Shown piece after piece: positions 732 to 55,915 of a DNA stretch of 64,000 nt. Within the stretch, counting starts at the first letter, position 1. Every line of letters begins with the position of its first letter. A model generated the notes under the pieces. The model worked only from the letters and a program-made list of their open reading frames with translations, was not told the origin of the DNA and ran no database searches. The DNA comes from an uncultured bacterium (GTDB lineage: Bacteria > Patescibacteriota > Microgenomatia > Levybacterales > UBA12049), in NCBI GenBank assembly GCA_963826535.1, contig CAWGXL010000011.1:576809-640808 (forward strand). Direction: 5' to 3'. A program made the position numbers and the translations under genes.

Positions 732-760
732 CTGGATTCCCGCGTTCGCGGGAATGACAA
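732..760. repeat. Palindromic repeat element, copy A (CTGGATTCCCGCGTTCGCGGGAATGACAA), between the SPFH and MerR genes
   Basis: A 9-bp stem ATTCCCGCG / CGCGGGAAT with conserved flanks CTGGATTCC ... GGAATGACA. The same architecture recurs at 24486, 40761, 40844, 45883, 52964, 53003 and 55875. Confidence 0.8.
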
Positions 761-857
761 GGCTAATGATTAACGCTTTTGCCAAACTCCGAACTATTAC
801 AGAACTGCTCCAGAGAAGGATCGTCAATAATGCCTTAGGGGCGATGAAGAACGTGTG

Positions 858-1163
858 TTAGATCAATTTTTCTGCTTTGAATTGGGGGAAGAGTAGTTTT
901 TTTAGCTCGATGCCTTCTTTTTCTGCAATATTTAAAGCTTCAAAAAGTATTTTTACCCCTTGTAGGTTTACTCCTTTCACTTGAGTCAAATATTTAACAA
1001 ACTGTAAGCGTTCCAAGTCGTTGATGGAAAACATTCTTCTTTTGGTGTCTGTTCTCTGACTAAGAAATACACCTATTTTTTCATAAAGCATAATAGTACG
1101 CGGATGGAGGTGCAGAAGTTTGGCTGCGACAGATATGGTTAAAATTGGTTGTTCTGTGCTCAT
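858..1163 (-). CDS. MerR-family helix-turn-helix transcriptional regulator
   Basis: The N-terminal HTH LTISVAAKLLHLHPRTIMLYEKIGV fits the MerR pattern (y.i.evA.l.gv.prtlryYE..Gl). The size (101 aa) and coiled C-terminus are typical of short MerR/HspR-like regulators. Confidence 0.6.
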   Translation of the reverse strand: MSTEQPILTISVAAKLLHLHPRTIMLYEKIGVFLSQRTDTKRRMFSINDLERLQFVKYLTQVKGVNLQGVKILFEALNIAEKEGIELKKLLFPQFKAEKLI

Positions 1164-2079
1164 GGTATAAAAGTTGAGTTAATATTAATATAAAAGTTGA
1201 TAGCGAGAATGTCAAGAGGGAAAATTTAGAAAATATTAGTTGTTAGAAATTTAATCGATTAGATGAGTTGTTAATTCAAGCAAACAGTATAGTGATCGAT
1301 GAAATTAAGTTAACAAATTCTTATAAGTAAAACATCATTGAAAATAATTGAATATAGGCTTTTGTATAATCACGGTTCTTCTGTTAAGGACTATATACTT
1401 AAGGCATAAAAACACTCTCAGCTATGGCGTAAGTCAGAGTTAGGATTTAATGATAAGAGAATAATAGAGTGAATCTATCTTATAACTTACAATTATTAGG
1501 GGAAGCTCTTATCTTGAGCGGTGTAGTGCCACTAAGAACGTTTTCGCTTCATGATTATAAATTTAGTAGTTTAGATTGCCGCTTTAGGGAAAGCGTGAGA
1601 ACATAAAGTTTGTTCTAATTTCAAGAATTAATAATTTATAAAATATAGATTTTTTTAGTATAGCCTTAAATAGTTGAAACCCATAAGACGGACAGGTCTA
1701 AAAAGGCGATTTTTTTACTTTTTTCTACCTTTTTCACGGTTTTTAATACATTTTTTGACCCATAAGACTTTTTTGATGTCCTATAGATGACTATTAAAAC
1801 TACTATTTGGTCCCTGTCAGTACCGGTTGTCTTGTGCTAAATAAGTAAAAGCCCCGACAAGACAGTAATATTTTTCATTCAGCTTCAGTTCCCATTAATG
1901 TTAACAGTAACTTTAGACCTGTAGAAAGTTTGATAAATGTACTTTTAGCTTCATTACTATATCTTTACGCACAATTTGAAATTGCCTTTTTTGGCTTTGT
2001 TAATGTATAAATAGGCATTGTTGACAGTTAATTCCCTATATTGTTAACATTTTTATAGGCAGGTAATTGTAATCATAAA

Positions 2080-5000
2080 ATGTATAGGCGCCTGCCCAAT
2101 AGTGAAAAAATAGTTTATATCCAGCAATATCTCTCCGGAGAAAAAGCCTCGAATATCTGTAAAGATGCTAATGTTTCAAGAACGATTTTTTATAGATGGT
2201 TGAAGACATATAGGTCTAGTCATAGCCTCAAAAATAAGGATATATTGGCTTCAAAAATAGTTAAAGGGAAAAACCATTGGAAATCTTTGAATAGGAAGCA
2301 GCAGGAAGAAATAATAAAGCTTGCTATAAAATTCCCTACGTATTCAGCCCAAAAAATTGCTTCAGTTACCAAAGTAAGTACTCATGGAGTTTGGAATGTA
2401 TTAAAGCGTTACTCATTGAATACCAGGAAAGATCGGGGCCTGTATATTTCTAAATATGGTAGAAGTTTTATTAAATGCCCGGCTTATAATGATAAACTGA
2501 ATATGATTACACGCTATGAGCAAGAAGAGAAAGCTCATATAATCTGTAAGGATTTTGCTGTTTCACGTACAATTTTCTACAAATGGCTTAAGAGATACAG
2601 GCAGTCTAATAATGATATTGCAGCATTGAATGATATAAGGCCGAAAGGAGAGAAGCATTGGCGTTTTGTGCCCGGGGCAACCGGGATGGTATTGGATTTA
2701 GTTGTTGCGAGTCCAGAATTTTCTGTAAATAAGCTCACTAAGGAGATTCAATCTAAATTGCAAGGAGCGAAATCCCCCCAACCCCCTTTAGAAAAGGGGG
2801 CTAAAGTAATGAGTGTTCTAGGCAGGCATGGTATTTATAATATTTTAAAACGTCTTGATTTAAATACATATGAAAAAAGGTTAGCATACGCCAGGGCACA
2901 AGTGCCAATTGTGGTTCCAAAACCTCAAATTGCGGAAGTATCATTGCCTCCACAGCCAAGATATTCCTTTTTATCTTTTCTTTCCCCGCCACTCCGGAAT
3001 TATTTTTCTTCTTCTTTTGGAGTTACCGCAAGTATCTGTCTGATTGTTATCTTAATACCCATAGTTCTTCTTTCTTCTTTTCTTCCGGCAGATAGTTTTG
3101 GGCAGAGGATCGCTTACTTTATTGCTTTTATTTCTCTTCTTTGCGGTCTGTTTTTCTTTCTCTACTCGCTCAAGTATTATCTTTCCATTGCCTATGTTCT
3201 TTCTTTTTCACGCCGGGAAGACGGACAAAAGGATGGGAGTCCTTCGACAGGCTCAGGATTTGCAAGATTTTTAGCCGGGATATTTGGAGTTTCTATCAGT
3301 GTTGAAAATGTTGCGTCAGACGCGGTTTCTTCAAAGGTGGGAACGTCAAACGTTCCTTTTTATAATAATACTGCGGTTGGGCTGCAAGCTGATTTATCTA
3401 ATGTGAAGCTGGAGAGGAATCCTTTTGTCTCTGTGCATGTGTCAACTTATAACGAGAAACGGGTGATTGACCGGCTTTTGAGTGCCTGCACTTCATTTGA
3501 TTATCCCAACTATGAAGTGATTGTCGCCGATGATTCAAATGATGAGACGGTGGGGCTGATTGAGAAATGGGCGCATAACCCACATATTAAAATATCCCAC
3601 AGAGATAGTAGGGAAGGGTACAAAGGGGGGGCTCTTCAACAAGCGCTCAGGGTTACCGATTCCAGGGCAGAGTTTATATTGGTATTTGATGCGGATTTCA
3701 TTCCATACCCGGATACTATAGTTCAGTTTTTGAAGTATTTTCAACTCGCTACCGGCGGATTGGATAAAATCTCCCCTAACCCCTCTTTAATAAAGAGGGG
3801 AAATCAATTATCTCCCCCTTTTCTAAAGGGGGATGGGGGGATTTCTCCTATAGCTGCAGTCCAAGGTTATCAGTGGCATGTTTTAAATAAATCGGAGAAC
3901 TGGATAACGCGCGGGGTAAGAAGTGAATACGCGGGGTCTTATGTTATAGAGAGGTCAGGAGCGGAGCTTTATCATGGACTGAAACAAATATCCGGATCGG
4001 TCTATATGATTAGGCGCGATGTGCTGCAGGGAATTGGCTGGGGAACCTCACTTACGGAGGACTTTGAACTGACATTGAAACTTTATGAGGCAGGATTCAA
4101 AGTAGTCTATACACCTTATATCCAAGCACCGGCTGAGGCGGTGTCAACTATAAAGAGGCTGATCAGGCAGAGAATGAGATGGGCGGAGGGACACTCGTTT
4201 AATATTAAGAGGATGCTTATTCCGCTTTTGTTTGGAAGACATGAGATGCCGGTCGGGATTGCCACGTCGTCCCGGATGAGCGGGACTCCTCGCAATGACA
4301 GAAAGGGAAGGGTTTTCATACCTTCACCGCTGACTCGTTCGGAAAAGATGGAACTAGTCTATTTGGCTCCTTATTATCTGCAGGCTGCTTTATTCATTGT
4401 GGGGACCTTATGCTGGTTTATAGCGGAAGTTATCTTTCAAGTCAGACTTCCTTTCTGGACCGAGGTCTGGGGTTGGTCGCTGGTCGCAACTAATCTTTTT
4501 GCTCTGCCTCTTATGAATATGATAGGTATGTTCATGGAGGAATCGGATGAGAAGGATTATTTGGGCATTATATCCTTTGTAGTTCTTTCATATATTGTGG
4601 CACCATTCCAAGCATATGCGGCGGTGAAGGGATTTTTGGAAGACGTGGAGGGGCCATGGTTTAGGACACCTAAGACGGGGCGTATTACAGATACGCTTAT
4701 GCCGGGGAGGATCGCGAGGTTTGTGAGAGGGATTTTTGGCAGACATGCGCCTGCAGAATTTAAAAAGTCAAATAAACCGAAGGAGCTTGGAAATTTAAAT
4801 ACTTACTTTGCTTTGGCTACGGCGAATAATCAGTTTGGCGATTTCAAGATCAGAAGGAAAAATATAAGATGGGCTGGAAATTTAAGCGTGGTTGCGCTTT
4901 TGATAATATCCACTTTACTGGCTAATTTTGCAAATACGATGAGCTTCTCTGAGTCAGCTTATGCGTCGCAGCCTATTATGAAGACAGTTGGTGATAATAA

Positions 5001-8000
5001 TGTTTCTACGGATAATGAAGAAAAGGTAGATTTGGGTATCTCATCTGAGGAGACATTAAAAAAAGAACCGAAGAATAAGGATACAATTATCAAAAATGCT
5101 TTGGCTAAAGAGATTTCAGGTTATCGCTCTATTGCCAAAAAAACTCACAGCGGAGAGTTAGTTGAATTTATCTTTCATGAATCAGCAAAGGTTCGGGTAA
5201 AACTGGGGCATCGGGAAATTGAGTTTCAAACCAACTATATTGGTGGACAAAGAATTAATCCTAAGAGCGCAAAGGTATATCAAGATCAGGAAGTAATCTA
5301 TGAAGAAATTGTAAAAGGTATTGATCTGAAATATACAATCAATGGAGATCTGATGACGGAAGAGTTTATCGTTAAAGATAGGGAGGCGGCCAAAACATTT
5401 ATTGAACCCCACTTCGCCAAGGCTTCGCGGGGCACTGTCGTGCAGACGGTGCAGACTGTTGATGTAAAAGTTGTTTCTCCTGAAAACGAGAAAACATTTG
5501 GTTTCTTTACTGATGAAGGGAAAGAGTTATTTAAGTTTGCGAGTCCGTTTGCTAAGGATAACGATGGGAAGGTGAACAATAATATCTCGATCAGTTTAGA
5601 AAAGAGCAATATAGGGCATAAGCTTACAAAAACATTGGGCGGGTCGGCTAGAAGCTGGCTTGTTGATCCGAAACGGGCTTATCCGGTTGCGATTGATCCG
5701 ACGGTTATTGTCTCGGGATCAATTGGGGCTGATAGCGAGGTGCAATTTGGCGGGCTGCAGCGGAAATTGGCGGCGGTAAATACTGGAAGTGCTGATGCAT
5801 GGTGCAATGACACAAGCGGGATAACCTGTACTAGCTTCTGGACGAAGCGGAGAAAGATCACTTTTAATAATTCTGCATCTGCTGAAAACTTAACAAATTT
5901 TCCTATTATGGTAAAGCTGAATTCAAGCCGGATTACTTACGCAGATACACAAAGCGCGGGGCAGGATCTGAGGTTTGTTGATCCAACAGACAATACGGTT
6001 GTTCTCCCGCATGAGGTTGAGGAGTTTAATGAGACAGGGGATGACTTTGTGTGGGTGAAGGTGCCGCAAATTGATTCAGGGTCAACAACAGATTATATAT
6101 GGATGTATTATGGGAATGGTAGTATTGGGGATGGATCGGATCCAGCGAATGTGTGGGAGACTAATTATAAAGGTGTTTGGCATTTGAAAGAGAATCCGGC
6201 GGGTGGAGCACCACAGATGCTTGATAGTACAACTAATAATGGTGATGGTACATCAGCCGGTACTATGACTAGCGGTGATCAGGTAGGAGGACAAATTGAC
6301 GGGAGTTTGGATTTGGATGGGACGAATGATACTATAAGCGTTCCCGATTCTTCGATATTCAGCTTTACAAACGGAAGCGGCACTGATCTGCCGTATACGC
6401 TTTCGGCATGGGTTTTTATGAGGGATATCACGGAAACAGCGGGGATCGTATCGAAATGGGCGGATGCCGCTGATGACGCGGAGTGGGTATTATATATTAC
6501 AGGAAGCACAATGCTTATTGAAAATTATCATTTTGATGTTACCAATATATTCAGAGGCCGCACTGTTGCTCTTAATGCTGGCGCTCATCAGGACAGATGG
6601 ATGCATGTTGTTGCCACATATGACGGCTCTGAAGCAGTCGGCGGGTTTGCTATATATTTTGACGGGGTGCGGGTTGATACCACAAATTCAACCTTAGGTA
6701 GTTACACCGGAATGTCCTCAGTGGATTCTCCGGTAAGGATGGGTTCATATGACGACGATTCGGCGACTTTCTTGAACGGTATCATTGACCACGTCAGCGT
6801 TGCAGCAACCAACCGCTCGGCTGATTGGGTTGAGGCGGAGTTTAAATCAGGGGCGGATACGATTAATTCGTTTGGGGGTGAACAAACAAGCGCAGGTGAT
6901 ATTAATACATTCTATGCTTTTTATAATGATGCCGGGGTAGTCTCTTATAAAAAGTCAACTAATGCGGGTGCTTCGTGGGGGAGTGCTGTGACTGTATCGT
7001 CAAATGGGTCTGATACTGACAATCATAATCCTTCCATTGCAATTTCAAATAATTTTATCCATGTTTTTTGGGTTGATGATGGAGATAACGAGGTTCATGC
7101 ACGGCGCTTAGATACCAACTCGGATACACTAGGCACAGAATGTCTTACTTTGACTAGCTCGGCAAACATCAGTTCCAACTATATGGTGTCGGTTGCACAG
7201 CTTAGCGATACGAGTGCCATGGTGGCTTTTTCTGACACATCAGGAGGTACTGCCGGAGTGGATGTGTATGAAGTGACTAGTCTTGATGGCGCATGTGCCA
7301 TGACTGATGTTCATCCTGGGAATATAACCTTTGGATCACAAGGAGCTGGCTTGACCGATGGAGATCGACCTGTACTTGTCGGCCTTTCATCAACAACCGC
7401 AGCAGTTATCTTCCAGGATGGGGATCTGTCGTTTTCCTATTATGACGTGGCGCTTGATGAGTGGACCAGGAATAATCAGCAAATTGCCAATGTAGCTGAT
7501 TCCGTCTACTCAGTAACGACTGACGGGACCACGATCTGGATTTTGAGTAAATCAGGAACGACTGCTGCAAATTTGTATAGTCTTAATACTTCAACTTCAG
7601 ATATAACCGAGACGCAAATTGATAGCGCGGCGTCAGCAACCAATGGCCAGGACAATGTATCAGATATTGATATGTATTGTATTTCGGATACTGATTGTAA
7701 AATTGTTTATACCGATTTAATAAGTGACGCGGCGCCGGATTTGATATTTGTTGATTGTAATAATGCTGTTTGTAGTTCAAGTACCGCAGTTACACTAACT
7801 TCTGATTGCGGTGTAGCAAGCGCGGGCTGTAATCCGGCAATTCATTGTTCTTCAGGAACAGATTGTCATATAGTATTTCAGTTTACGGATGCCATACCTA
7901 TGGCAAGATTTGTTGATTGCGACGGGGCTGATAATACTAATGCTTGCAGTACAAACGCGACAGTAAATACAAATGCTGATATTGGGGGTGCCACTACGAG

Positions 8001-9165
8001 AAGCCATCTTGCAATTGATTGTCCAACCGGTACCAATTGTAAGTTTATTTATGGTAATGATACAGGAAATGGTGTGGATTTTGTCGATTGCGCTAATGAC
8101 CAGTGCGCTATCGCGAGCGATGTAATAACGGAAGTTATTGATTTTGGCGTTTCGGTGGTTGCCCCAAAGGTGGCTCTTGATTGTCCAAGCCCAACAGCGT
8201 GTAAGGTGGTGGCGCAGGATATTGACGCTGGGACACTTGTACTGGTTGATTGTAGTGGTGCCGTAACAACTGAGACATGTGCAGTGCCTCCGGCGCCAGA
8301 TATTATTGATGCCAGTAATGTTAGTGCCACTGCTGACCGTGTGCCGGTTGCAATAGATTGCGCAGGCGCTCCTACTGACTGTAAGGTAGCTTATGGGGAT
8401 GATACCGATGACGATTTGACTTTCGCAGATTGTAATGACACTGATTGTGATAGTCCGACGCGGACTGATATTGATCTTACTGGTGGTGCGACGACAAATA
8501 CTTCGCCGAGAGTCGATATGCATTGTCTGACTGCAACTGATTGTAAAATCCTTTACGAGGGGACTTTGACATCAGGATCTGAAGTTGCGTATTTCGTTGA
8601 TTGCGATAGCGCGGCCTGTACTTCAGGATCAGCGCTTGCAGATTTGGGGAACGCAAACCCGCGTTTCGGCGGAGCTATCTATTGTCCGGCAACCGATAAT
8701 TGCAAAATGGCCTACTATGAGGGGACAACCGGCACTGCTCCGACTGTTCAATTCGCAGATTGCAGTAAAGCTAAGTGTATGCCTGACTGGACTGATGCGG
8801 CTGATCCGTTTACAGGAGCGACAAATGTGTTATCTGTTTCAATTACATATGATTCAGCAAATGCTGATTTGTACGCGCATATTATTAAGGATACTACAGA
8901 GCAGGCATATTGGAAGACTACTGATGCAGCATCGATTTCCTGGGGGGCAGAGACTTCGTATGCGTTTGATACTACCGTGGGATCGCTCTCTGAGATGTCT
9001 GCGCCTATAAAGGCTACGTCAACGGATTTGATTGGTGTGGTGTTGCGCCGTTCTACTGTTGACAATTTTGAGTTTGCACCCCTGCCTGATTTCTCGTTGA
9101 TATTAATAGTCATCCTTCCAGTGTTGCCAAGATTATTAAGGAAGATACATAGACGGAGATGTTGA
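2080..9165 (+). CDS. Giant (2361-aa) multidomain membrane protein: two tandem transposase-like HTH/winged-helix modules, a processive family-2 glycosyltransferase (cellulose/chitin-synthase-like), TM helices, DUF2341 plus LamG/ConA-like lectin domain, an Asp-box/BNR-like segment, seven Cys-rich tandem repeats and a C-terminal tripartite sorting-signal-like tail
   Basis: Aa 1-260 hold two repeats of an IS630/IS3 OrfA-like HTH (ASNICKDANVSRTIFYRWLKTY / AHIICKDFAVSRTIFYKWLKRY, each followed by a winged-helix-like segment). The GT2 domain carries VSVHVSTYNE, ADDSND, KGGALQ, DAD and the processive-synthase QRMRW (QxxRW) motif. Several TM helices flank the GT2 domain. DUF2341-like DLRFVD...VWVKVP...YIWMYYGN is followed by a LamG-like fold (TLSAWVF ... 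WMHVVATYDG ... IYFDGVRV). STNAGASWG resembles an Asp-box. Seven units of about 40 aa of the form [ILV]DCxxxTDCK[IV]xY...[FV]VDCxxxxC follow. The tail is EFAPLPDFSLILIVILPVLPRLLRKIHRRRC. The frame is continuous with no stops. A Met-less stretch between the HTH region and the first TM region leaves open that the GT2 protein starts at a non-ATG codon downstream of a separate small HTH gene. Confidence 0.6.
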   Translation: MYRRLPNSEKIVYIQQYLSGEKASNICKDANVSRTIFYRWLKTYRSSHSLKNKDILASKIVKGKNHWKSLNRKQQEEIIKLAIKFPTYSAQKIASVTKVSTHGVWNVLKRYSLNTRKDRGLYISKYGRSFIKCPAYNDKLNMITRYEQEEKAHIICKDFAVSRTIFYKWLKRYRQSNNDIAALNDIRPKGEKHWRFVPGATGMVLDLVVASPEFSVNKLTKEIQSKLQGAKSPQPPLEKGAKVMSVLGRHGIYNILKRLDLNTYEKRLAYARAQVPIVVPKPQIAEVSLPPQPRYSFLSFLSPPLRNYFSSSFGVTASICLIVILIPIVLLSSFLPADSFGQRIAYFIAFISLLCGLFFFLYSLKYYLSIAYVLSFSRREDGQKDGSPSTGSGFARFLAGIFGVSISVENVASDAVSSKVGTSNVPFYNNTAVGLQADLSNVKLERNPFVSVHVSTYNEKRVIDRLLSACTSFDYPNYEVIVADDSNDETVGLIEKWAHNPHIKISHRDSREGYKGGALQQALRVTDSRAEFILVFDADFIPYPDTIVQFLKYFQLATGGLDKISPNPSLIKRGNQLSPPFLKGDGGISPIAAVQGYQWHVLNKSENWITRGVRSEYAGSYVIERSGAELYHGLKQISGSVYMIRRDVLQGIGWGTSLTEDFELTLKLYEAGFKVVYTPYIQAPAEAVSTIKRLIRQRMRWAEGHSFNIKRMLIPLLFGRHEMPVGIATSSRMSGTPRNDRKGRVFIPSPLTRSEKMELVYLAPYYLQAALFIVGTLCWFIAEVIFQVRLPFWTEVWGWSLVATNLFALPLMNMIGMFMEESDEKDYLGIISFVVLSYIVAPFQAYAAVKGFLEDVEGPWFRTPKTGRITDTLMPGRIARFVRGIFGRHAPAEFKKSNKPKELGNLNTYFALATANNQFGDFKIRRKNIRWAGNLSVVALLIISTLLANFANTMSFSESAYASQPIMKTVGDNNVSTDNEEKVDLGISSEETLKKEPKNKDTIIKNALAKEISGYRSIAKKTHSGELVEFIFHESAKVRVKLGHREIEFQTNYIGGQRINPKSAKVYQDQEVIYEEIVKGIDLKYTINGDLMTEEFIVKDREAAKTFIEPHFAKASRGTVVQTVQTVDVKVVSPENEKTFGFFTDEGKELFKFASPFAKDNDGKVNNNISISLEKSNIGHKLTKTLGGSARSWLVDPKRAYPVAIDPTVIVSGSIGADSEVQFGGLQRKLAAVNTGSADAWCNDTSGITCTSFWTKRRKITFNNSASAENLTNFPIMVKLNSSRITYADTQSAGQDLRFVDPTDNTVVLPHEVEEFNETGDDFVWVKVPQIDSGSTTDYIWMYYGNGSIGDGSDPANVWETNYKGVWHLKENPAGGAPQMLDSTTNNGDGTSAGTMTSGDQVGGQIDGSLDLDGTNDTISVPDSSIFSFTNGSGTDLPYTLSAWVFMRDITETAGIVSKWADAADDAEWVLYITGSTMLIENYHFDVTNIFRGRTVALNAGAHQDRWMHVVATYDGSEAVGGFAIYFDGVRVDTTNSTLGSYTGMSSVDSPVRMGSYDDDSATFLNGIIDHVSVAATNRSADWVEAEFKSGADTINSFGGEQTSAGDINTFYAFYNDAGVVSYKKSTNAGASWGSAVTVSSNGSDTDNHNPSIAISNNFIHVFWVDDGDNEVHARRLDTNSDTLGTECLTLTSSANISSNYMVSVAQLSDTSAMVAFSDTSGGTAGVDVYEVTSLDGACAMTDVHPGNITFGSQGAGLTDGDRPVLVGLSSTTAAVIFQDGDLSFSYYDVALDEWTRNNQQIANVADSVYSVTTDGTTIWILSKSGTTAANLYSLNTSTSDITETQIDSAASATNGQDNVSDIDMYCISDTDCKIVYTDLISDAAPDLIFVDCNNAVCSSSTAVTLTSDCGVASAGCNPAIHCSSGTDCHIVFQFTDAIPMARFVDCDGADNTNACSTNATVNTNADIGGATTRSHLAIDCPTGTNCKFIYGNDTGNGVDFVDCANDQCAIASDVITEVIDFGVSVVAPKVALDCPSPTACKVVAQDIDAGTLVLVDCSGAVTTETCAVPPAPDIIDASNVSATADRVPVAIDCAGAPTDCKVAYGDDTDDDLTFADCNDTDCDSPTRTDIDLTGGATTNTSPRVDMHCLTATDCKILYEGTLTSGSEVAYFVDCDSAACTSGSALADLGNANPRFGGAIYCPATDNCKMAYYEGTTGTAPTVQFADCSKAKCMPDWTDAADPFTGATNVLSVSITYDSANADLYAHIIKDTTEQAYWKTTDAASISWGAETSYAFDTTVGSLSEMSAPIKATSTDLIGVVLRRSTVDNFEFAPLPDFSLILIVILPVLPRLLRKIHRRRC
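2770..2803. repeat. Hairpin module (CCCCCTTTAGAAAAGGGGG) of the palindromic element family, in-frame inside the giant CDS
   Basis: A perfect 8-bp stem with a 4-nt loop. It encodes SPQPPLEKGAK in the linker between the HTH modules. Confidence 0.6.
3768..3849. repeat. Composite palindromic element (ATCTCCCCT...CCCTCTTTAATAAAGAGGGG...CCCTTTTCTAAAGGGGGATGGGGGGATTTCTCC) inserted in-frame in the GT2 domain of the giant CDS
   Basis: It shares modules with the 17357..17494 copy (CCCTCTTTAATAAAGAGGG, TCAATTA, CCCTTTAATAAAGG, GGGATTTC flank). It encodes SPNPSLIKRGNQLSPPFLKGDGGISP between the DAD and QxxRW motifs. Confidence 0.7.
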
Positions 9166-9509: not shown

Positions 9510-11540
9510 TTAATTTGGAGTTATGATAAGGTTGGGGCTGTTAAGGCTTTCTTTAGAGCCGAATTCTATTCTTCCATTTTCTCCTTCATCAGTTTTTTTG
9601 ATAAGCCAGCCGTAGTCTTCGCTTGAGCCATTGATAAACTCTTGAATGTCTGTAGTTACATCAAATTCTACTATGCCTGTTTGATTATTGGAGATTGCAG
9701 TTGTTACAGTAGGTGTTGATATAAAAGGCCAAAAAATACTGTTCGTCATATTCCACTGTGTAGGTCCGCTACAGTTATCAACAGTATTGTTAATATTTGA
9801 ATCGGTAGCACACTTCCATGTCGTTCCCAAGCCTGTTCCCTTCACAGGAGGCGTATTATTATCATTAAATCCATTACCTTCTGCCCAATCTGATGATAAT
9901 CTATGTATTCCAATTGTTCTTCCTCCAGTTCCCCAATTATTTCCATTATCAGATATTGTTAATTGTAATTTTGCACTAAAGTTTTGACTGTTTCCGACAG
10001 CCTCTTCAATTTGTGATTGGTCAAAACGAACGAGAGCCCGGTTTTTTCCTTGTAACTGTACTCTCATAAAAGTGGATGATCCCTCGTTTTCATTTGGTGA
10101 TCCTTGTTTTATATACGAGTCCGCTATAGGCGTAAGTGTCGTAGGTGGAGTATTATTGACAGTGATCGTGATCGCCACAGTATCAGACTCAATCGGCGTA
10201 CCATCGTCTGTGACTGTAAACTCTATATTCGTATATGTGCCCTCCTGACTGTAATTAGGAGTCCAAGAGAATGTTGCAGTTTGCGGGTCGAATGTTGCAC
10301 CTTCCGGGAGGTTGTTAGCGCTGTAGGTAAGGTTGTTACCGTCTGGATCAGTTGCTGTAATAGTGAATTGAAGAATTTGTCCTTCATCTATGATTTTATC
10401 ACTGACTGAAGTAAGAAAAGGCTCTTGGTTATTTGGGATGATCCCATCCCACAAGAAAATCTCAGCATCATTATCCACGTATCCAGGCCAAATTACATAT
10501 TCATTATCAATAATAGGTGAAGAATCATGATAGTCATTACTCGTTATCTGAAGTGTTACTCCACTTGAAATATAGTAGAGAAAAATTTCAGGATCAGTGC
10601 CTTTATATTGATACCACGTAACTTTTTCGTGGCTGAACCAAGGTGAATTATCACTATAATTATTGTTAGTTATTTGGGTTGTTATGCCGGTAGTAACGTC
10701 ATAGAGAAAAATTTCATTATCAGTGCCATCGTTTTCAGTCCACACAACCTTTCCATCATTTATCGGGGGAATATAGTCAATACTGCTGTTATTGGTTATC
10801 TGACTCGTTGTGCCAGTTGCACTGTCGTAGATGAGAATTTCAATATGGGAGCCAACATATCTAGACCAAACTACCCTTCCATCGCTTATTTGAGGAGAAC
10901 GATCATCATAGCTATCGTTGGTTATTTGAGTTGTTGCTCCGGTTGCAATGTGGTAGAGAAAAATTTCACTATCAGTGTCATCATATCTAGACCAAACAAC
11001 CCTCCCATCATTAACTTGGGGTGAGGTACTCCCATGGTTAGTTATCTGGATCGTTGTTGCAGTGGCAATGTCGTAGAGGAAAATACCGTCAGAGCTAGCC
11101 CACACAACCTTTCCATCGTTGATTTGAGCGCCACCATCGCTATAAATATTGTTAGTTATCTGGATCGTTGTTGCAGTGGCAATGTCGTAGAGGAAAATTT
11201 CTGTATCAGTACCGTCAGAGCCGGTCCATACAACCTTTCCATCATTAATTCGAAGATCTGGATTGTAAAAGTTATTGCTATTTATCTGAGTGGTTGTCCC
11301 AGTTGCAATGTCATGGAGAAAAATCTCAGAAGAATTAAATCCAGTACCATGGTACCATGTAATTTTTCCATTGCTTATTTGGGGAGAATAATCATTATAA
11401 TTATTAGATGTTAACTGAGTTATCTCGGCCATTACAGTTGAAATTCCCACTGTCATTGATAATACTATTAACATCACTAAGACCAGGCATATTTGCATCG
11501 ACTGTACTACAAATCTAAATAATTGGCTAAAGTTTATCAT
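9510..11540 (-). CDS. Secreted repeat protein: signal peptide, about 8 PD40/TolB-like beta-propeller repeats, an Ig-like (He_PIG/cadherin-like) domain and a C-terminal glycan-binding-like (DNRLRE-like) domain
   Basis: N-terminal hydrophobic signal (MINFSQLF...VGISTVMA). The repeat unit is about 42 aa: DGKVVW...DTEIFLYDIATGTTTQITNN.Y.D.SPQI. Then comes TITATDPDGNNLTYSANNLPEGATFDPQTATFSWTP...YTNIEFTVTDDG (Ig-like), then ADSYIKQGSPNENEGSSTFMRVQL...RALVRFD...SDWAEGNG. The antisense ORFs 10674..11024 and 11034..11414 are artefacts of the sense repeats. Confidence 0.6.
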   Translation of the reverse strand: MINFSQLFRFVVQSMQICLVLVMLIVLSMTVGISTVMAEITQLTSNNYNDYSPQISNGKITWYHGTGFNSSEIFLHDIATGTTTQINSNNFYNPDLRINDGKVVWTGSDGTDTEIFLYDIATATTIQITNNIYSDGGAQINDGKVVWASSDGIFLYDIATATTIQITNHGSTSPQVNDGRVVWSRYDDTDSEIFLYHIATGATTQITNDSYDDRSPQISDGRVVWSRYVGSHIEILIYDSATGTTSQITNNSSIDYIPPINDGKVVWTENDGTDNEIFLYDVTTGITTQITNNNYSDNSPWFSHEKVTWYQYKGTDPEIFLYYISSGVTLQITSNDYHDSSPIIDNEYVIWPGYVDNDAEIFLWDGIIPNNQEPFLTSVSDKIIDEGQILQFTITATDPDGNNLTYSANNLPEGATFDPQTATFSWTPNYSQEGTYTNIEFTVTDDGTPIESDTVAITITVNNTPPTTLTPIADSYIKQGSPNENEGSSTFMRVQLQGKNRALVRFDQSQIEEAVGNSQNFSAKLQLTISDNGNNWGTGGRTIGIHRLSSDWAEGNGFNDNNTPPVKGTGLGTTWKCATDSNINNTVDNCSGPTQWNMTNSIFWPFISTPTVTTAISNNQTGIVEFDVTTDIQEFINGSSEDYGWLIKKTDEGENGRIEFGSKESLNSPNLIITPN

Positions 11541-11935: not shown

Positions 11936-13084
11936 CTATGGGAAAACTAGACCGTACTTCCATATACCGTTACCTCCACATGCTCCGTATACTGTGCGAT
12001 TAAGAGCTAGTCTAGGAACAGCAATTGAGTAGTATCCACCGCAGAGATCACTGTATGGAGGGTTACCATTGAGACGTGTCCAACTGTTACCGGAATTATT
12101 ACTTAGGTATAAACCGTCACCACCGGTGCCTGCATAAAGTCTTTGACCAATTCCAAAGACAATATCCTGTACATCTGTTGGTGGGATACCGCTACTTGCA
12201 GGTTGCCAAGTTGTTCCTCCGTCCAGACTTTTTATGAGGTGATTGACTCCATCAAGCGCGTCGCTTCCTACAAAAACCGTTTGGTTTGTAGCATAATTTG
12301 GAGAAAGGACTACAGACCATGCACTTATAGTGTTTTCGATAAACGGTATTGAAAGAGTCCAGGTTGCACCACCATCAATGCTTTTTATAACACCAACGCT
12401 ACTTGGCGGAGCTTGCATATGAAGAGTCGCAAAAACCGTTTGGCCTGTTGAGTAGTTTGGAGAAAATCCGAAATCAGTAATACCTTGCCATGATGCGTCG
12501 TCTGGAAGGGGATGAATTACTTGCCAGGTATTCCCACCATCGGTGCTTTTTGCCAAGAGACTTGTTGTTGAGGCAATGCTACTTGCGATAAAAACCGTAT
12601 GGTCAGCTGCGAAATTGGGTGAAATGCCTATTTCCAATCCAGTAACCGTTGGATAATCTTGTGCCAATTGGGAATTAACAACTTGCCAGCTTGCTCCTCC
12701 GTCTGTACTGCGATAGACAGTACTCATATGAGGAAAACTTACAAAGACTGTTTGATCTGTTGCATAATTTGGAGAGACTGCAATCGAAGGACGGTAAGGG
12801 TCGAATGAAGATGGATTGGCAGGAGGTAGGCCGTTGGTCAACTGTGTCCATGTTCCACCTGCATTAGTACTTTTGTAAATTCCCTCAGCTGTATTGGCAA
12901 ATAATGTCCGTTCAAAAAGCAATGTCGGTGCCAACGCTACAGATCCAGTAGGAATATCTGTCAGGCCAAGGTGTTTCCAGCCATTGAGTCCTGGAAATAG
13001 TTGTGCTGAAGCATGAGGTGAATATAGACTAAAGAAGAAAGCTACAAAAATTAAAATAACAATTTTGTATACTTTGAGGACCAT
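11936..13084 (-). CDS. Secreted BNR/Asp-box repeat beta-propeller protein (sialidase-like / Ycf48-like fold)
   Basis: Signal peptide MVLKVYKIVILIFVAFFFSLYSPHASA. Six S-x-D-G-G-x-[TS]-W Asp-boxes: KSTNAGGTWTQL, RSTDGGASWQVV, KSTDGGNTWQVI, KSIDGGATWTLS, KSLDGGTTWQPA, LSNNSGNSWTRL. Confidence 0.75.
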   Translation of the reverse strand: MVLKVYKIVILIFVAFFFSLYSPHASAQLFPGLNGWKHLGLTDIPTGSVALAPTLLFERTLFANTAEGIYKSTNAGGTWTQLTNGLPPANPSSFDPYRPSIAVSPNYATDQTVFVSFPHMSTVYRSTDGGASWQVVNSQLAQDYPTVTGLEIGISPNFAADHTVFIASSIASTTSLLAKSTDGGNTWQVIHPLPDDASWQGITDFGFSPNYSTGQTVFATLHMQAPPSSVGVIKSIDGGATWTLSIPFIENTISAWSVVLSPNYATNQTVFVGSDALDGVNHLIKSLDGGTTWQPASSGIPPTDVQDIVFGIGQRLYAGTGGDGLYLSNNSGNSWTRLNGNPPYSDLCGGYYSIAVPRLALNRTVYGACGGNGIWKYGLVFP

Positions 13085-13181
13085 AATTATTTATATTGTT
13101 AGGTTAACAGTAATTCAGAAAAATGTCAAATGTGCGAAATGTTTGCGAATTATTTTTCTTTAATATGCAGTAGTTAGTCTT

Positions 13182-13430
13182 TTAACGGCGGTGGGATTTG
13201 GATGAAAGTTTTGATGCGATGTACAGCAAAAGCATGACGACCAACGTCAGCGCGAGAAGAATTTGGACATTAATACCGCTTGAGATCTGATAGCGGTGCA
13301 GTGGGTTCGAGAACTTCGGGACTTGGGGTATTACGTTATAATCTTCGAACGGTCGGGATGACAATGGGTTATGTTTTAAATAGTTCTTTGTGTGTTCCGA
13401 GGAGTGAAAAATAGGCAATCGTCTCGTCAC
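13182..13430 (-). CDS. Small hypothetical membrane protein (C-terminal TM helix ...INVQILLALTLVVMLLLYIASKLSSKSHRR); its 3' end is duplicated at 13944..14047
   Basis: An 82-aa ORF. The last ~35 codons lie in the 105-bp direct repeat. The 5' part overlaps the toxin gene in another frame, so the true start is uncertain. Confidence 0.35.
   Translation of the reverse strand: MTRRLPIFHSSEHTKNYLKHNPLSSRPFEDYNVIPQVPKFSNPLHRYQISSGINVQILLALTLVVMLLLYIASKLSSKSHRR
13186..13290. repeat. Left copy of a ~105-bp imperfect direct repeat flanking the toxin-antitoxin module
   Basis: CGGCGGTGGGATTTGGATGAAAGTTTTGATGCGATGTACAGCAAAAGCATGACGACCAACGTCAGCGCGAGAAGAATTTGGACATTAATAC is about 93% identical to 13944..14047. 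Confidence 0.8.
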
Positions 13431-13641
13431 CTGATTGTACTTCTTCGTAAAATGCCCGGTAGTCGTTGGTTATATCAATACTTCTATACCCCTCATACCC
13501 CCTCTGAAGTGCATGGTTATTGAGGACTGGCTCTTGGAGATTTTTCTCAAAGATTTTAATTCTTTCAAGGAAACTCTTGCGGATTCTCACGTCAAGTTTC
13601 TTCAATTTTTTCAGTAATTGGGGGCTTACCTGTGTTTTCAT
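13369..13641 (-). CDS. Type II toxin, RelE/ParE superfamily (YafQ/HigB-like mRNA interferase)
   Basis: A 90-aa protein with the C-terminal RelE/ParE signature ...YEGYRSIDITNDYRAFYEEVQ...IAYFSLLGTHKELF. Its start overlaps the upstream antitoxin stop (ATGA). Confidence 0.7.
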   Translation of the reverse strand: MKTQVSPQLLKKLKKLDVRIRKSFLERIKIFEKNLQEPVLNNHALQRGYEGYRSIDITNDYRAFYEEVQSGDETIAYFSLLGTHKELFKT

Positions 13642-13916
13642 ACACCTTGCTTGTGCAGCCAGGCAATCATTTCATCTGCAGAATCAAATATTGGCGAGGC
13701 TTTTCCTGCTTTTCTATTTTCTCTTGCTTTTTTTAGTTGTGCTTTTGCATAAGGAGTAAGTTTTTCACCGGTAAACGTAATTGCTTTTCTTCTCGCAAAC
13801 TCTTTAAGTAACCCAGTGATAACAGCACTTAGACTCAACCCCATCTCTTTGGCAGTTTTTTGTGCGTCATCTTTCACCCTCCGGTCTGTTTTTATGAGTA
13901 TAGATACTGTATTCAT
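13638..13916 (-). CDS. Type II antitoxin, RelB/DinJ family (ribbon-helix-helix)
   Basis: A 92-aa protein: MNTVSILIKTDRRVKDDAQKTAKEMGLSLSAVITGLLKEF matches the DinJ/RelB RHH N-terminus. It is the first gene of a two-gene operon with the toxin. Confidence 0.7.
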   Translation of the reverse strand: MNTVSILIKTDRRVKDDAQKTAKEMGLSLSAVITGLLKEFARRKAITFTGEKLTPYAKAQLKKARENRKAGKASPIFDSADEMIAWLHKQGV

Positions 13917-13943
13917 ATAGTAAAATTATATCTTTTTTATATA

Positions 13944-14047
13944 TTCTGTCAAGCGCGGTGGGATTTGGATGAAAGTTTTGATGCAATGTACAGCAAAAGC
14001 ATGACGATCAAGGTCAGCGCGAGAAGAATTTGGACATTAATACTGAT
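13944..14047. repeat. Right copy of the ~105-bp direct repeat. On the minus strand it encodes a truncated 38-aa copy (MNNFWEISINVQILLALTLIVMLLLYIASKLSSKSHRA) of the small membrane protein's C-terminus
   Basis: Direct alignment with 13186..13290. The residual short ORF is below the 60-aa track threshold. Confidence 0.75.
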
Positions 14048-45855: not shown

Positions 45856-45882
45856 ATTTTAGTTTTTAACTTACATTGAATT

Positions 45883-45986
45883 GTCATCCCGACCGAGTTC
45901 GCAAACGAGTGGAGGGATCTCAAGCCTATGTGGAAATCTGTGGTATGAGATTCTTCGACTTTGCTATCGCTTCGCTCAGAATGACA
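45883..45986. repeat. Two adjacent degenerate copies of the palindromic element family (GTCATCCCGACCGAG...GGAGGGATCTC and GAGATTCTTCGACTTTGCTATCGCTTCGCTCAGAATGACAA)
   Basis: GTCAT(T/C)CC / GG(A/G)ATC-type flanks are retained; the internal cores diverge. Confidence 0.55.
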
Positions 45987-52963: not shown

Positions 52964-53066
52964 ATACCTTCCTTGTCATTCCCATGAAAATGGGAATCTA
53001 TATTAATTAAGTTCTGGATTCCCCCACCCTTGTCAAGCAAGCGGACTCCTTCGTCAGCCCCTTCGC
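52964..53066. repeat. Two palindromic-element copies (GTCATTCCCATGAAAATGGGAATC, and CTGGATTCCCCCACCCTTGTCAAGCAAGCGGACTCCTTCGTCAGCCCCTTCGCGGGAATGACGG, which has an internal module insertion). The second forms the 3' end of the 53054..53848 CDS
   Basis: Covarying stem (ATTCCCA/TGGGAAT). The CCCTTGTCAAGCAAGCGG module is shared with 17357..17494. The element encodes the C-terminal ...PSFPRRG. Confidence 0.75.
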
Positions 53067-53848
53067 GGGAATGACGGTAAGTTTTTAATACTGATAACAA
53101 ATGAGACTGAGGGTATGCTTTTGAATTCGGGAAGAAACTTGATTACTTTTCCATAATTAAATGGCAGTGTCCAAACTCCTTTAAAGACTACTTGCAAACC
53201 GGCATTTTCAACCATTTTAAACACATTTTTTTGACTGATTGGTTTTTCAATTGGTTGATGCTTTATTTTAAATAAGAAAGTTACGGCATTATGAAAAAAC
53301 CAGGCAAACGGGATTGGAGGATGTTGATGCACTGTCAGAATTTGAATCTGTGAAATTCGCGCCATTTCATTGATTGCTAATTGTGGATCGGCAAAATGTT
53401 CCAGATTGCCGCTGGAAATGGCAATGTCAAAGGCGTTATCTTTAAACGGAAGAGCATGAGCATCAGCAAGAACCAGATATTTCGCACCATTTGTTTTCGC
53501 TTTTTTTAATGCTTTGAGCGAGAATTCTACTCCAACAGTATCCGATGCCATTTTTTCAATAATTCCTTCGCCGCAGGCAATATCAACAGTTTTATTGCCT
53601 CGGGCAATACTTGCCAGGATTTCATAGGAGCCGTCTGTTGGACCGCCAAATGTTTTTTTGTGCATGGAATCATAGAGTTTGGCTGAAGTTAGCGTTTTGG
53701 GGTGCTCAATATATAAAAAATCCCAAATACCACCCGTAAATTTAAAGGAAAATTTGCATTTCGTGCAAGTCCCTTTATTTTTTATTCCAATAATTGGTTT
53801 TTTACAGCGGGGACAAGCGAATAGGCTTTCTAAGTTGATTTTCGTCAT
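53054..53848 (-). CDS. Class I SAM-dependent methyltransferase with an N-terminal Trm112-like Zn-ribbon
   Basis: CPRCKKP...CTKCKF, VDIACGEGI and FDIAISSGNLEHF. Confidence 0.7.
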   Translation of the reverse strand: MTKINLESLFACPRCKKPIIGIKNKGTCTKCKFSFKFTGGIWDFLYIEHPKTLTSAKLYDSMHKKTFGGPTDGSYEILASIARGNKTVDIACGEGIIEKMASDTVGVEFSLKALKKAKTNGAKYLVLADAHALPFKDNAFDIAISSGNLEHFADPQLAINEMARISQIQILTVHQHPPIPFAWFFHNAVTFLFKIKHQPIEKPISQKNVFKMVENAGLQVVFKGVWTLPFNYGKVIKFLPEFKSIPSVSFVISIKNLPSFPRRG

Positions 53849-54759
53849 ATGTTTTTTGCATTAAGAGTTTGAGTCAAATGGGTAATGTTCCACCAAAGTC
53901 CTTTAAGAAATGGTACAAACTTTTTATCGTGCAGTATGATTAACCGGTACGGTGTTATAAGGAAGAGCTGGAATGAGAGGATGCTTATTTTGTTGATAAG
54001 GGGGAGGTTTTTTAGGGTGAAGCGGATCTTATTTTTGTACCATTGATAGTATTTTAATTGTTTGTTTTTATTTGCCGTTGTAGTTTCTCCATGCCAGAAA
54101 ATTGCAGTAGGAAGATATCTTACCGATAAGCCGGAATTTTTCACCCGCAGACAAAGGTCAACATCCTCAAAATATGCAAGTGAGAATCCTTCATCTAAAA
54201 GACCTATTTTTTTTAACACTTTTTTTGGTATTAACATAGCGCATCCTTGGACCCAATCAGGCTCATTAATTTTACCGGGAAAAGGGGCGCGGAAAATTTT
54301 ACCATTCCAAGTGTTCATCATATACCCGCATGATATGAGTTTTTTCGGGCTACTTTTTAAAAATATTTTTCCTCCAACTAAACCGACTGAGCGATGTTGT
54401 TCAATATATTCAACCATATTATTCAAACTATTTTTTTCAAATAAAATATCATCATTGCCTATAAAAATGTATTTTCCAGTAGATTTTTTAATCCCAATAT
54501 TAATTGCTTTTGCAAAGCCTAGATTTTTTTCCATTTTTATCAGTGTAACTTTTGGAAATTTCAATTTTATTTTTTTATCCGAACCATCAGTTGAATTATT
54601 ATCCACAATTATGACTTCAATTTTATTTTGGGGGTAGTTTAATTTATGGATTGATGTTAAGCATTCAATGGGTTCAAGACCACCATTAAATACTGGAAAG
54701 GTGATAGAGACAGTCGGGAATGATTTGTTATTTGGGGTAAAGTACGTTTTTTTGTTCAT
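53845..54759 (-). CDS. Glycosyltransferase family 2 (paralog of 40837..41781)
   Basis: VSITFPVFNG, IVDNNSTDGS, FAKAINIG, NDD. It has a 4-bp overlap with the downstream gene. Confidence 0.85.
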   Translation of the reverse strand: MNKKTYFTPNNKSFPTVSITFPVFNGGLEPIECLTSIHKLNYPQNKIEVIIVDNNSTDGSDKKIKLKFPKVTLIKMEKNLGFAKAINIGIKKSTGKYIFIGNDDILFEKNSLNNMVEYIEQHRSVGLVGGKIFLKSSPKKLISCGYMMNTWNGKIFRAPFPGKINEPDWVQGCAMLIPKKVLKKIGLLDEGFSLAYFEDVDLCLRVKNSGLSVRYLPTAIFWHGETTTANKNKQLKYYQWYKNKIRFTLKNLPLINKISILSFQLFLITPYRLIILHDKKFVPFLKGLWWNITHLTQTLNAKNI

Positions 54760-55555
54760 CTGAAAGCAATATTAGTATATCATTTTTAATTTGGAATATT
54801 GATTTACAACGTTTACAGATAAAGGTTTTTTTTTCTTTTTGGAAAGTGATATTGGGCTTGGAAGGACAATTGGGGCAGGCAAGATAATCCAGAAGATTTG
54901 AGGATTTAATATTACGCATTGAATCAGTTGAAAGATGGCAAAGCGCTCCGATGCCACCACCCAATAATTGAAGTAGAATGTTTTGAAAGTATGGGGGATT
55001 GAGCCATCTTTTTTTTCTGTTTTTTTGGCGGAAAATTATTCCTTTAAAGGGAAAAATTACGAGTTGTGCATGTACATTGGAGAATAGGTTCAAAGCCTTT
55101 TCCCAGGTTTTAATTGTAAAAGTTTCTTCAAGAATATTATTATCAACCTCACTTTTTCCAATTCTTGATATGAAATGGAGGATAATAAATACTTTGAGGA
55201 TTTTTTCAAACCAACGCAAATGAATATCGCGACGCCAGAGGTTTAAGTTAAAAATTTGACCAACAGGTTCTTCATTAAAATAGAAATACCCACCGGGAGC
55301 AAGAACTCTTTTAATTTCTTTTAATACCGGGTAAGGGTCGGGGAGATGGTGGAGGGTTTGGAATGTAAAGATAAACGGAATACTTCCGGTAATAAATGGC
55401 AAATTGTAAACGTCACAAACAACTCTAATAGGCATTTTCTTAAATTGCAATACTTTTTTATACTGTGGTGCTAATGCTAAAGTTTCGAAAGAGATGTCAG
55501 AGGTAAATCCTTCTAAGTTATAGTTATTGTTAAGTAGCATTGCTCCCTGTCCCAC
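54728..55555 (-). CDS. Class I SAM-dependent methyltransferase with a C-terminal Trm112-like Zn-ribbon. The annotated ATG truncates the fold: the open frame continues upstream to ~55860, includes motif I and has no ATG
   Basis: The upstream in-frame translation ...KKIVYPGEPSGSEYIEIVKERIKDYTGYFNKLKNKHIFQKGPYLELGAGVGQGAMLL contains the GxGxG motif I; the first ATG lies inside it. The C-terminus is CPNCPSKP...CKRCKS. Confidence 0.55.
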   Translation of the reverse strand: MGQGAMLLNNNYNLEGFTSDISFETLALAPQYKKVLQFKKMPIRVVCDVYNLPFITGSIPFIFTFQTLHHLPDPYPVLKEIKRVLAPGGYFYFNEEPVGQIFNLNLWRRDIHLRWFEKILKVFIILHFISRIGKSEVDNNILEETFTIKTWEKALNLFSNVHAQLVIFPFKGIIFRQKNRKKRWLNPPYFQNILLQLLGGGIGALCHLSTDSMRNIKSSNLLDYLACPNCPSKPNITFQKEKKTFICKRCKSIFQIKNDILILLSDEQKNVLYPK

Positions 55556-55874
55556 CCCTGCGCCAAGTTCCAGATAAGGCCCTTTCTGGAAAATATGTTT
55601 ATTTTTAAGCTTATTAAAGTATCCGGTATAATCTTTAATACGTTCTTTTACTATTTCTATATATTCTGAACCTGATGGTTCTCCGGGATAGACAATTTTT
55701 TTCCCACCGAATTGTCCCGCCAGTTTTTTCCTAAAGTCGACTTCGCCTTTTTTATTGTGATTTGATTGGGTTTGAATCTTAATAAAATGAAGTTTATCAT
55801 AATATATTGTCTTATGGTAGAATGATTTTGCATTATAGTTTACGCTTTTATGCGGAAAAAATTATTTTTATGTA

Positions 55875-55915
55875 CTGGATCCGCCAGCTGGCGAATGACC
55901 GCGTCAAACGCGGCT
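55875..55915. repeat. Degenerate palindromic-element copy (CTGGATCCGCCAGCTGGCGAATGACCGCGTCAAACGCGG) in the divergent promoter region
   Basis: CTGGAT...GAATGAC flanks with a GCCAGCTGGC stem, followed by a CCGCGTCAAACGCGG hairpin. Confidence 0.55.

Follow-up and report, generated by a model that had tools for sequence, protein, structure and literature searches.

The 64,000-nucleotide stretch of contig CAWGXL010000011.1 analysed here (the window) carries an envelope-glycosylation cluster with genes for glycosyltransferases of families GT1, GT2, GT4 and GT9, methyltransferases, a flippase, and YfhO/PTPS-related membrane proteins. Short DNA palindromes recur in it, both between genes and, in frame, inside them. 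The locus raises the question of what these palindromes are and how they came to encode parts of proteins. The host belongs to the candidate phyla radiation (CPR) and is Microgenomates-like, and the closest homologues of its proteins come from Daviesbacteria, Gottesmanbacteria, Woesebacteria, Curtissbacteria, and Levybacteria. The short palindrome is a member of the CGTC-tagged superfamily of repetitive extragenic palindromic (REP) elements, family CGTC-1, which is a described, bacteria-wide class and not a new kind of element. The best explanation, which we hold to be quite probable, is that this CGTC-1 REP, known elsewhere as dRS3, NTS, or RPE-6, disperses as a non-autonomous element, that the copies within genes are in-frame survivors filtered by selection, and that the copies are nested with two other hairpin families, named here B and C.

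Identity and structure of the short element

The short element is polar and about 28 nt long. Its head, (C/T)GTC, is unpaired and is followed by an 8-bp stem that opens with AT, a 4-nt loop, and the tail CCAG. Eleven head-tagged hairpin copies, which read [C/T/G]GTCAT, stem, loop, stem′, and ATCCAG from head to tail, were found in the window, in line with an earlier note on this DNA that had counted at least ten. Two of the positions given there, 52964 and 53003, were about 10 nt off, and the copy at 4254-4300 had been missed. The head tag, which is unpaired as in CGTC-1, is CGTC in four copies, TGTC in six, and GGTC in one. The multi-copy and dimeric organisation of the family is also present, with three inverted dimers (40761-40871, 45882-45986, and 52974-53076), whose heads face outward, and singletons.

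Di Nocera, De Gregorio and Rocco (2013, BMC Genomics 14:522; PMC3733652) defined CGTC-1 by a terminal CGTC (often TGTC, or CCTC), an 8-bp stem whose first two pairs are A-T and T-A, a loop of 4 nt, and the tail CCA, and equated it with dRS3 of Neisseria and RPE-6 of R. conorii. The NTS of Chenal et al. (2025, Nat Commun 16:2388; PMC11893778) is a 28-nt extension of dRS3 (CGTCATTCCCGCGMAVGCGGGAATCYRG), and the Ssn-related motif (SRM), HGTCWYN(0-2)YYVSBRHN(0-5)WNVSBRGN(0-2)RNCYNB, is a looser motif for NTS-like elements of other bacteria (PMC11893778). Copy 24486-24513 (CGTC-ATTCCCGC-GAAG-GCGGGAAT-CCAG) fits the CGTC-1 definition exactly and is identical to the NTS consensus. The SRM regular expression is matched in the window by this copy and by copy 732-759, whereas shuffling gave an expectation of 0.07. 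The CGTC-type copies are the following:

732-759 (- strand): CGTC-1 REP / NTS-like copy, TGTCATTCCCGCGAACGCGGGAATCCAG; matches the SRM regular expression; covariance model score 68.7 bits; intergenic, 98 nt downstream of the MerR-like gene 858-1163 (- strand), with the conserved tail flank reaching to about 710
4254-4300 (- strand): CGTC-type variant, TGTCATTGCGAGG...CGTGGCAATCCCG; in frame in the giant open reading frame (ORF)
17472-17492 (- strand): partial CGTC-type head at the end of composite 17357-17494
24486-24513 (- strand): exact NTS / CGTC-1 copy, CGTCATTCCCGCGAAGGCGGGAATCCAG; in frame in the Gfo/Idh/MocA ORF
40761-40788 (+ strand) and 40844-40871 (- strand): CGTC-1 inverted dimer between convergent genes
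45882-45921 (+ strand) and 45943-45986 (- strand): two CGTC-type variants that form a heterodimer, in the intergenic space separating two same-strand genes
52974-53000 (+ strand), with stem CCCATG/CATGGG, and 53014-53076 (- strand), with module C (53027-53062) nested in its 3′ arm: inverted dimer
55875-55900 (- strand): variant copy with conserved tail flank, GGTCATTCGCCAGCTGGCGGATCCAG; covariance model score 54.8 bits; in a divergent intergenic region, 39 nt upstream of 55939-57060 (+ strand)

The 9-mer CTGGATTCC occurs exactly five times in the window against 0.31 expected, a count reached by none of 100 shuffles, and GGAATGAC occurs five times against 1.58 expected. The 9-mer alone is not enriched in the window when one mismatch is allowed (8 against 11.7 expected), and therefore the signal lies in the whole element. 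A loose count of tags followed by a hairpin (7 against 2.0 in shuffles) discriminates poorly; the exact 9-mer count, the SRM regular expression, and a covariance model were the preferred statistics.

Six compact copies can be aligned over 52 nt, including an AT-rich flank past the tail (consensus TAGnTAAAAATAATTT). Five of them read ATTCCCNN, a loop of 4 nt, and NNGGGAAT, followed by CCAG in four and by CTA in copy 52974-53000; the sixth, 55875-55900, is 2 nt shorter. About 20 nt of the AT-rich tail flank is also conserved in this genome, and since it aligns with the copies, the conserved unit is nearer to 48 nt than to 27 nt. The covariance model built from the six copies regained those six at E≤2e-8 and nothing else in the window below E=1. 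Therefore, the remaining copies are divergent variants, recognised by their architecture; three of them (4254, 45882, and 45943), with longer stem-loops, can be assigned to the superfamily only. The hairpin AGTCCCGCTAAGCGGGATT at 23257-23275, inside ORF 21347-23458, is flanked by GGGGACGG and may be a degenerate CGTC-type copy (reverse complement CGTCCCCAATCCCGCTTAGCGGGACT), which does not fit the SRM pattern.

The earlier note had claimed that the stems change by compensatory covariation and that the hairpin is the selected unit, and both claims are supported. In the six-copy alignment, 97.9% of the cells are paired, in contrast to 17-53% for structures slid by one to three columns. Changes on both sides of the stem were found at three of the eight pairs (GC/CG/AU, CG/UA, and CG/GC), and the covariation score of 0.392, compared with 0.141 in shuffles, was not reached in any of 500 shuffles, which provides support and not formal proof, as the six copies are a small sample and are related to each other. 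The covariation agrees with the degenerate but paired stems of the published family definitions. Compared with shuffled controls, the dimer 40761-40871 folds into one long hairpin (z=-4.2), and the family B dimer 3767-3849 into a three-way junction (z=-3.9). The data support the conclusion that these are dispersed palindromic elements selected as hairpins; the stems would covary because the hairpin, and not the primary sequence, is recognised or maintained.

On a rival view, the elements are primarily functional RNA hairpins that end or stabilise transcripts at the 3′ ends of genes, with dispersal being secondary. Of the six fully intergenic copies, five follow a stop codon at a distance of no more than about 100 nt, with neighbouring genes that converge or run in the same direction, and the same bias is known for CGTC-1, for which RNA-level roles have been argued (PMC3733652). 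However, no copy is scored as an intrinsic terminator, and between 40 and 56.5 kb the number of terminator-like sites is that expected by chance (10 against 10.9). Furthermore, about half of the copies lie inside coding sequences (CDSs), in both orientations relative to transcription, one is positioned between divergent promoters, and none matches an Rfam family at gathering thresholds; the window as a whole contained neither an Rfam family at these thresholds nor a tRNA gene. We consider a primary RNA function unlikely, and an RNA-level role is possible as a companion of the dispersal of CGTC-1 REPs, with which it is compatible.

The inverted dimers resemble the classic REP doublets (REPINs) moved by RAYT, a REP-associated tyrosine (Y1) transposase of the IS200/IS605-like type. 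The REP/BIME and REPIN-RAYT systems of Proteobacteria share with the window tagged short hairpins, inverted doublets, mosaics, and a presumed single-strand mechanism, and the inverted dimers have a conserved spacer and take the fold of a single long hairpin, an organisation that is general for REPs. In contrast to the GTAG tag of REPINs, the tag here is CGTC or TGTC; RAYT genes have GTAG repeats or unrelated terminal inverted repeats on their flanks, whereas CGTC REPs lack a dedicated transposase (PMC3733652). The Y1_Tnp domain was absent from all window ORFs scanned, and the enzyme in question is putatively a GIY-YIG nuclease instead of a Y1 transposase. Movement by RAYT is, in our judgement, very unlikely. 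A classical MITE (a miniature transposable element with inverted repeats) was rejected as well, with no insertion sequence present in the window and no direct repeats seen flanking the copies on inspection.

The elements of the window resemble the CGTC-1 REPs of Di Nocera et al. in all four parts of the unit (head, stem, loop, and tail), in forming inverted dimers whose spacers measure 20-100 nt, in preferring gene 3′ ends, in having copies in frame within genes and at the ends of ORFs, and in being nested with other repeats. They differ in that the host is outside the five phyla listed by Di Nocera et al., in a much larger overlap with CDSs (five of eleven copies and all copies of family B), in the conserved AT-rich tail flank, and in the stem variants CCCCTG and CCCATG, which are rare in the cross-phylum sample. 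The likeness to NTS and SRM consists of one exact and one SRM-fitting copy, a polar hairpin, and a wide distribution among phyla. Nevertheless, only 2% of the copies in N. meningitidis are intragenic (PMC11893778) compared with about half of the copies here, no ssnA gene was found in the window, and the natural transformation that SsnA modulates in Neisseria is a process not established for this host.

The palindromic elements of Rickettsia (RPEs), to which the earlier note had likened the family, are a closer parallel than it had supposed, because RPE-6 and RPE-4 are CGTC-1 and CGTC-4, respectively, according to Di Nocera et al. (PMC3733652). RPEs (Ogata et al. 2000, 2002, cited through PMC3733652 and PMC3184786) are likewise palindromes placed in frame in the protein genes of a small, host-dependent genome. 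However, the classic RPE-1 is 105-146 nt long and unrelated in sequence, and the equivalence with RPE-6 is the one stated in PMC3733652.

Hairpin families B and C nested with the short element

Several copies contain additional segments, which the earlier note had interpreted as shared modules of one modular family. The modules B and C are present; however, the idea of a single family did not hold, since B occurs alone at 2769-2802. The modules are at least two further hairpin families, separate from the short form and nested with it. The unit of family B is composed of an ATC-C5-6 tail, (A)AATC(C/T)CCCC, then 2-4 nt, and the C-rich/G-rich hairpin CCCC(T)CTTT-NNN-AAAG(A)GGGG. The features that contain it are:

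2769-2802 (+ strand): family B singlet, GAAATCCCCCC-AA-CCCCCTTTAGAAAAGGGGG; 97% match, inverted, to 3814-3845; read in frame within the giant ORF
3767-3849: family B inverted dimer, in the order tail-hairpin, spacer AAATCAATTATCT, hairpin-tail
17357-17494 (+ strand): composite of a family B inverted dimer (17357-17480), a nested module C (17372-17412), and a partial CGTC-type head

The spacer AAAYTCAATTA is common to the B dimers 3767-3849 and 17357-17480. In the window, module C (...YTGTCAAGCARGCGG...CGTC...) was found only inside other elements: one copy lies within a B dimer and the other within the 3′ arm of a CGTC-1 element. For this class, it has been described that REPs nest with other repeats and that REP dimers insert into other palindromes.

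The blastn search of plasmids with family B returned three hits, all weak (E=0.06-0.8) and all cyanobacterial (Nostoc, Calothrix, and Planktothrix). The cyanobacterial plasmid sequences have the same family B architecture without the CGTC element, and the Planktothrix copy is inside a nonribosomal peptide synthetase gene. The Nostoc plasmid contains one B-like dimer in 50 kb, so that abundance there is unproven. No named family was found in the literature for B, for which sequence strings were searched, or for C. The Nezha-type MITEs of cyanobacteria, which were set beside family B by description only, are 130-170 nt long and have terminal inverted repeats like those of insertion sequences.

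Copies inside protein-coding genes

The alignments of homologous proteins indicate that each CDS-embedded copy is a lineage-specific in-frame insertion that occupies either a variable loop or the C-terminal end. The earlier note had placed in-frame copies in a giant synthase (twice), a YfhO-like protein, and a Gfo/Idh/MocA oxidoreductase, and inserts are visible in the alignments of all three; the comparison with orthologues lacking the insert, which it had suggested as a check, also came out in favour of insertion, with the segments missing from 7/7 helix-turn-helix (HTH) and 11/11 Gfo homologues.

The product of the giant ORF 2080-9165 (2361 aa) is a fusion of two HTH repeats of transposase-like type, a membrane segment, a GT2 domain resembling cellulose synthase, DUF2341, and a long Cys-rich repeat region. 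The fusion of HTH and GT2 is conserved in many Patescibacteria homologues, so that it is not a product of reading through an element. Through the family B singlet, the second HTH repeat gains approximately 12-15 aa (aa 231-241, KSPQPPLEKGA), which are absent from all seven homologues and also from the first HTH repeat of the same ORF. The B dimer 3767-3849 is located in the GT2 catalytic domain (aa 563-590), in the loop between FDADF (the DAD motif) and QGYQWH, before QxxRW, and makes the DAD-QxxRW loop about 18 aa longer than in most of the 19 homologues aligned. The variant 4254-4300 follows immediately after QRMRW (the QxxRW motif; aa ~725-741, GIATSSRMSGTPRND), where most homologues have no insert and five (P0002, P0004, P0007, P0008, and P0018) have different ones. 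The DNA of P0008 (L121) reads GTCATCCTGAACTCGTTTCAGGATCC at this point, followed by a second, nested copy.

The segment 3238-3262 of the same ORF, in the linker before GT2, reads GAGTCCTTCGACAGGCTCAGGAT and encodes the peptide SPSTGSG; the residues aligned with it are PSTGSGQ in P0008 and FGSAQDK in P0015. The segment appears to be a remnant of a further palindromic repeat.

The 138-nt composite 17357-17494 encodes 46 aa (aa 227-272) in a variable loop of the YfhO-like ORF 16679-18856, and this segment is missing from most of the 12 homologues. Other CGTC-type dimers occur in homologues of this protein, as confirmed at the DNA level for L127 and L128. The Gfo/Idh/MocA ORF 24295-25398 (- strand) contains an insert of about 15 aa, ALRNRHSREGGNPES, of which the element encodes aa 296-305 (RHSREGGNPE), and which is absent from all 11 homologues. 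In the AlphaFold model of this protein (mean pLDDT 86.8, pTM 0.85), residues 296-312, between a strand and a helix, are the sole internal stretch with values below 50, and the insert is predicted to be disordered.

Two proteins end in element DNA, as the earlier note had recognised. The GT2 encoded by 40837-41781 (- strand) terminates with LSFPWTGESSS*, in which the last codons, SFPWTGESSS*, and the stop are provided by the right copy of dimer 40761-40871 and its tail flank; the protein extends approximately 10-18 aa beyond the end of its alignment with the paralogue 53845-54759. The methyltransferase 53054-53848 (- strand) ends with PSFPRRG*. Its last seven codons and the stop come from copy 53014-53076, the stop lying inside the nested module C.

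In five of the six reading frames the canonical 28-mer is open, and the sixth contains a TGA. For the B dimer as for the YfhO composite, only a single frame is open, which is the one used, and this fits a selective filter acting on random insertions. The peptides encoded by inserts include RHSREGGNPESK and ISPNPSLIK, and element peptides such as RHSREGGNP, SFPxxxES, and SPxPPLxKG recur in unrelated proteins. The earlier note knew of no description of in-frame palindromic elements in CPR-like glycosylation loci. Our literature searches likewise found no paper on such elements in CPR or Microgenomates, but in-frame and ORF-end copies are already documented for the class: for CGTC and GTAG REPs, intragenic copies, dimers encoding 20-30 aa, clusters encoding 43-82 aa, ORF-end copies, and same-site insertions in orthologues are on record (PMC3733652). 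The same features have also been reported for small bacterial repeats generally (PMC3184786).

The segments might instead be ancestral protein features, namely conserved peptides that happen to have palindromic coding DNA, and the host loops do vary in length among homologues, with extra residues common there. However, the segments are absent from 7/7, 11/11, most of 19, and most of 12 homologues in the respective alignments, the inserts at the same place in homologues are different elements, the same DNA is also found between genes, and the Gfo insert is predicted to be disordered. The alignments already contradict an ancestral origin, which we regard as highly improbable. Chimeric joins made during metagenome assembly are no more credible. 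In their favour, the repeat is identical over 27 nt across phyla that co-occur in environmental samples, and such repeats can mislead assemblers, but the host ORFs continue in frame into orthologous sequence on both sides of each insert, typical assembly k-mers or reads are longer than the elements, and the phenomenon recurs in independent assemblies of relatives (the same gene is present in two assemblies, L121 and L122).

Proposed dispersal and a putative mobilising enzyme

The 27-mer pattern CTGGATTCCC-N8-GGGAATGAC was scanned on both strands of one genome per GTDB species (596 Gb) and found at a minimum of 120 loci, whereas about four matches were expected by chance. The matches listed represent most bacterial phyla, and the hosts include Neisseria, Alpha-, Beta-, Gamma-, and Deltaproteobacteria, Dehalococcoidia, Planctomycetes, Nitrospirae, and Bacteroidetes, the CPR groups Paceibacteria, Parcubacteria, Saccharibacteria, Uhrbacteria, and Peribacteria, and a nanoarchaeon. 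Among them, N8 is mostly GCCTTCGC, GCTTTCGC, or GCCTGCGC, with an additional compensated GT..AC variant, and head-outward pairs 50-110 nt apart are frequent, as in the window. The fraction of intragenic copies across phyla, estimated from stop-free stretches (21/149 among the matches listed), is unreliable in GC-rich genomes and was not used.

The nanoarchaeal match (L049, position 1508; Nanoarchaeota metagenome-assembled genome, GC 37%) is an exact CGTC-1 27-mer inside a 584-codon stop-free stretch of a DPANN contig. It suggests that the class extends to archaeal episymbionts as well, and does so intragenically.

The heterodimer 45882-45986 is 81% identical over 113 nt to an in-frame dimer in the YfhO-like CDS of L128 (GCA_041643235.1, Microgenomates-like), and therefore the same element family occupies non-homologous sites in related genomes. 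Together with the presence of different elements in the same loops, this argues for repeated insertion. As neither target-site duplications nor empty and filled alleles were found, the mobility of the elements is something that we infer.

Based on these observations, a mode of dispersal can be proposed. The copies would disperse as non-autonomous elements, probably via single-stranded DNA intermediates, and would often land in or beside earlier elements, giving rise to the mosaics with families B and C. The genome is about 88% coding, and many insertions would thus hit genes; selection would keep only those that are open in frame and located in dispensable loops or C-termini, which would account for the frames seen.

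By analogy with Neisseria, the sole biochemically supported partner of the motif is SsnA, a small GIY-YIG nuclease that binds the folded NTS in single-stranded DNA and cuts nearby in a strand-specific manner (PMC11893778). The arrangement NTS-ssnA-NTS was likened to an insertion sequence, as a proposal only (PMC11893778). GIY-YIG genes directly adjoin the element in L024 and L106, and a third was found in L109, that is, at three loci among the 120 matches listed.

Several points weigh against the explanation of the copies as dispersing CGTC-1 REPs. Nine of the eleven copies are outside the strict SRM pattern and were assigned on architecture. No empty-site polymorphism, target-site duplications, or recent identical copies were found. 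SsnA was shown to cleave single-stranded DNA, not to transpose (PMC11893778), CGTC REPs are without a known dedicated transposase (PMC3733652), and neither family B nor family C has a CGTC tag or a known enzyme. No GIY-YIG/Ssn gene was found in the window by regular expression, tblastn, four rounds of jackhmmer (with the two element-adjacent GIY-YIG proteins of L024 and L106 and a YhbQ sequence as queries), or Pfam scans of ORFs of at least 100 aa, and the same Pfam scans detected no Y1 or other transposase. The orientation of singletons showed no significant association with local GC skew among 113 singletons from other loci (Fisher p=0.12-0.35).

GC skew is positive across the window, and all five singletons in it (732, 4254, 17472, 24486, and 55875) have the head on the - strand. 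This orientation would place the strand that SsnA does not cleave in Neisseria on the presumed lagging-strand template.

A broader possibility concerns the families as a group. We tentatively speculate, with doubt outweighing confidence, that three or more unrelated hairpin families systematically remodel surface loops of envelope-glycosylation proteins in CPR/Microgenomates, with new elements targeting earlier ones at recurrent sites of orthologues, and that family B might be an undescribed cross-phylum class with its own mobilising enzyme.

Other repeats in the window have no part in these families. An approximately 85-nt palindrome, GTGAATAAAATTTTTTTTGCTGC ... CCCGCTGAGCGGG ... GCTGCAAAAAATTTTATTCAC, is present in two copies (28462-28548 and 32474-32562; 96% over 52 nt), which adjoin the paralogous C-methyltransferase genes 27071-28351 (- strand) and 32595-33845 (- strand), one upstream and one downstream of its gene. 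It folds better than shuffles (z=-2.9) and is unrelated to the CGTC, B, and C families. The direct repeat of 107 nt at 13175-13281 and 13942-14048 is 91% identical, with the copies 767 nt apart, and lies within 13100-14550, where there is no ORF of at least 100 aa. The in-frame tandem repeats of 126 nt (10536-11328) and 159 nt (12269-12775), in ORFs with He_PIG (immunoglobulin-like) and BNR/sortilin-like domains on the - strand, are ordinary protein-domain repeats.

What is possibly undescribed is the host lineage (CPR/Microgenomates) and the intragenic density of the elements, which extend a known phenomenon to a new lineage. Family B, seemingly shared with cyanobacteria on the basis of weak matches, also appears to be new. 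The annotation of CPR genes and proteins will misread element segments, which inflate the apparent diversity of loops and can give rise to false homology or spurious ORFs. The dRS3/NTS/RPE-6 class reaches ultra-small CPR genomes, in which a high intragenic load is tolerated, and a genome in which hardly any space is left between genes offers a natural test of the idea of selfish DNA in proteins that was first raised for Rickettsia. The Microgenomates repeats also bear on what moves CGTC REPs: the Ssn hypothesis would be strengthened if they co-occur with an Ssn homologue, and weakened if they persist without one.

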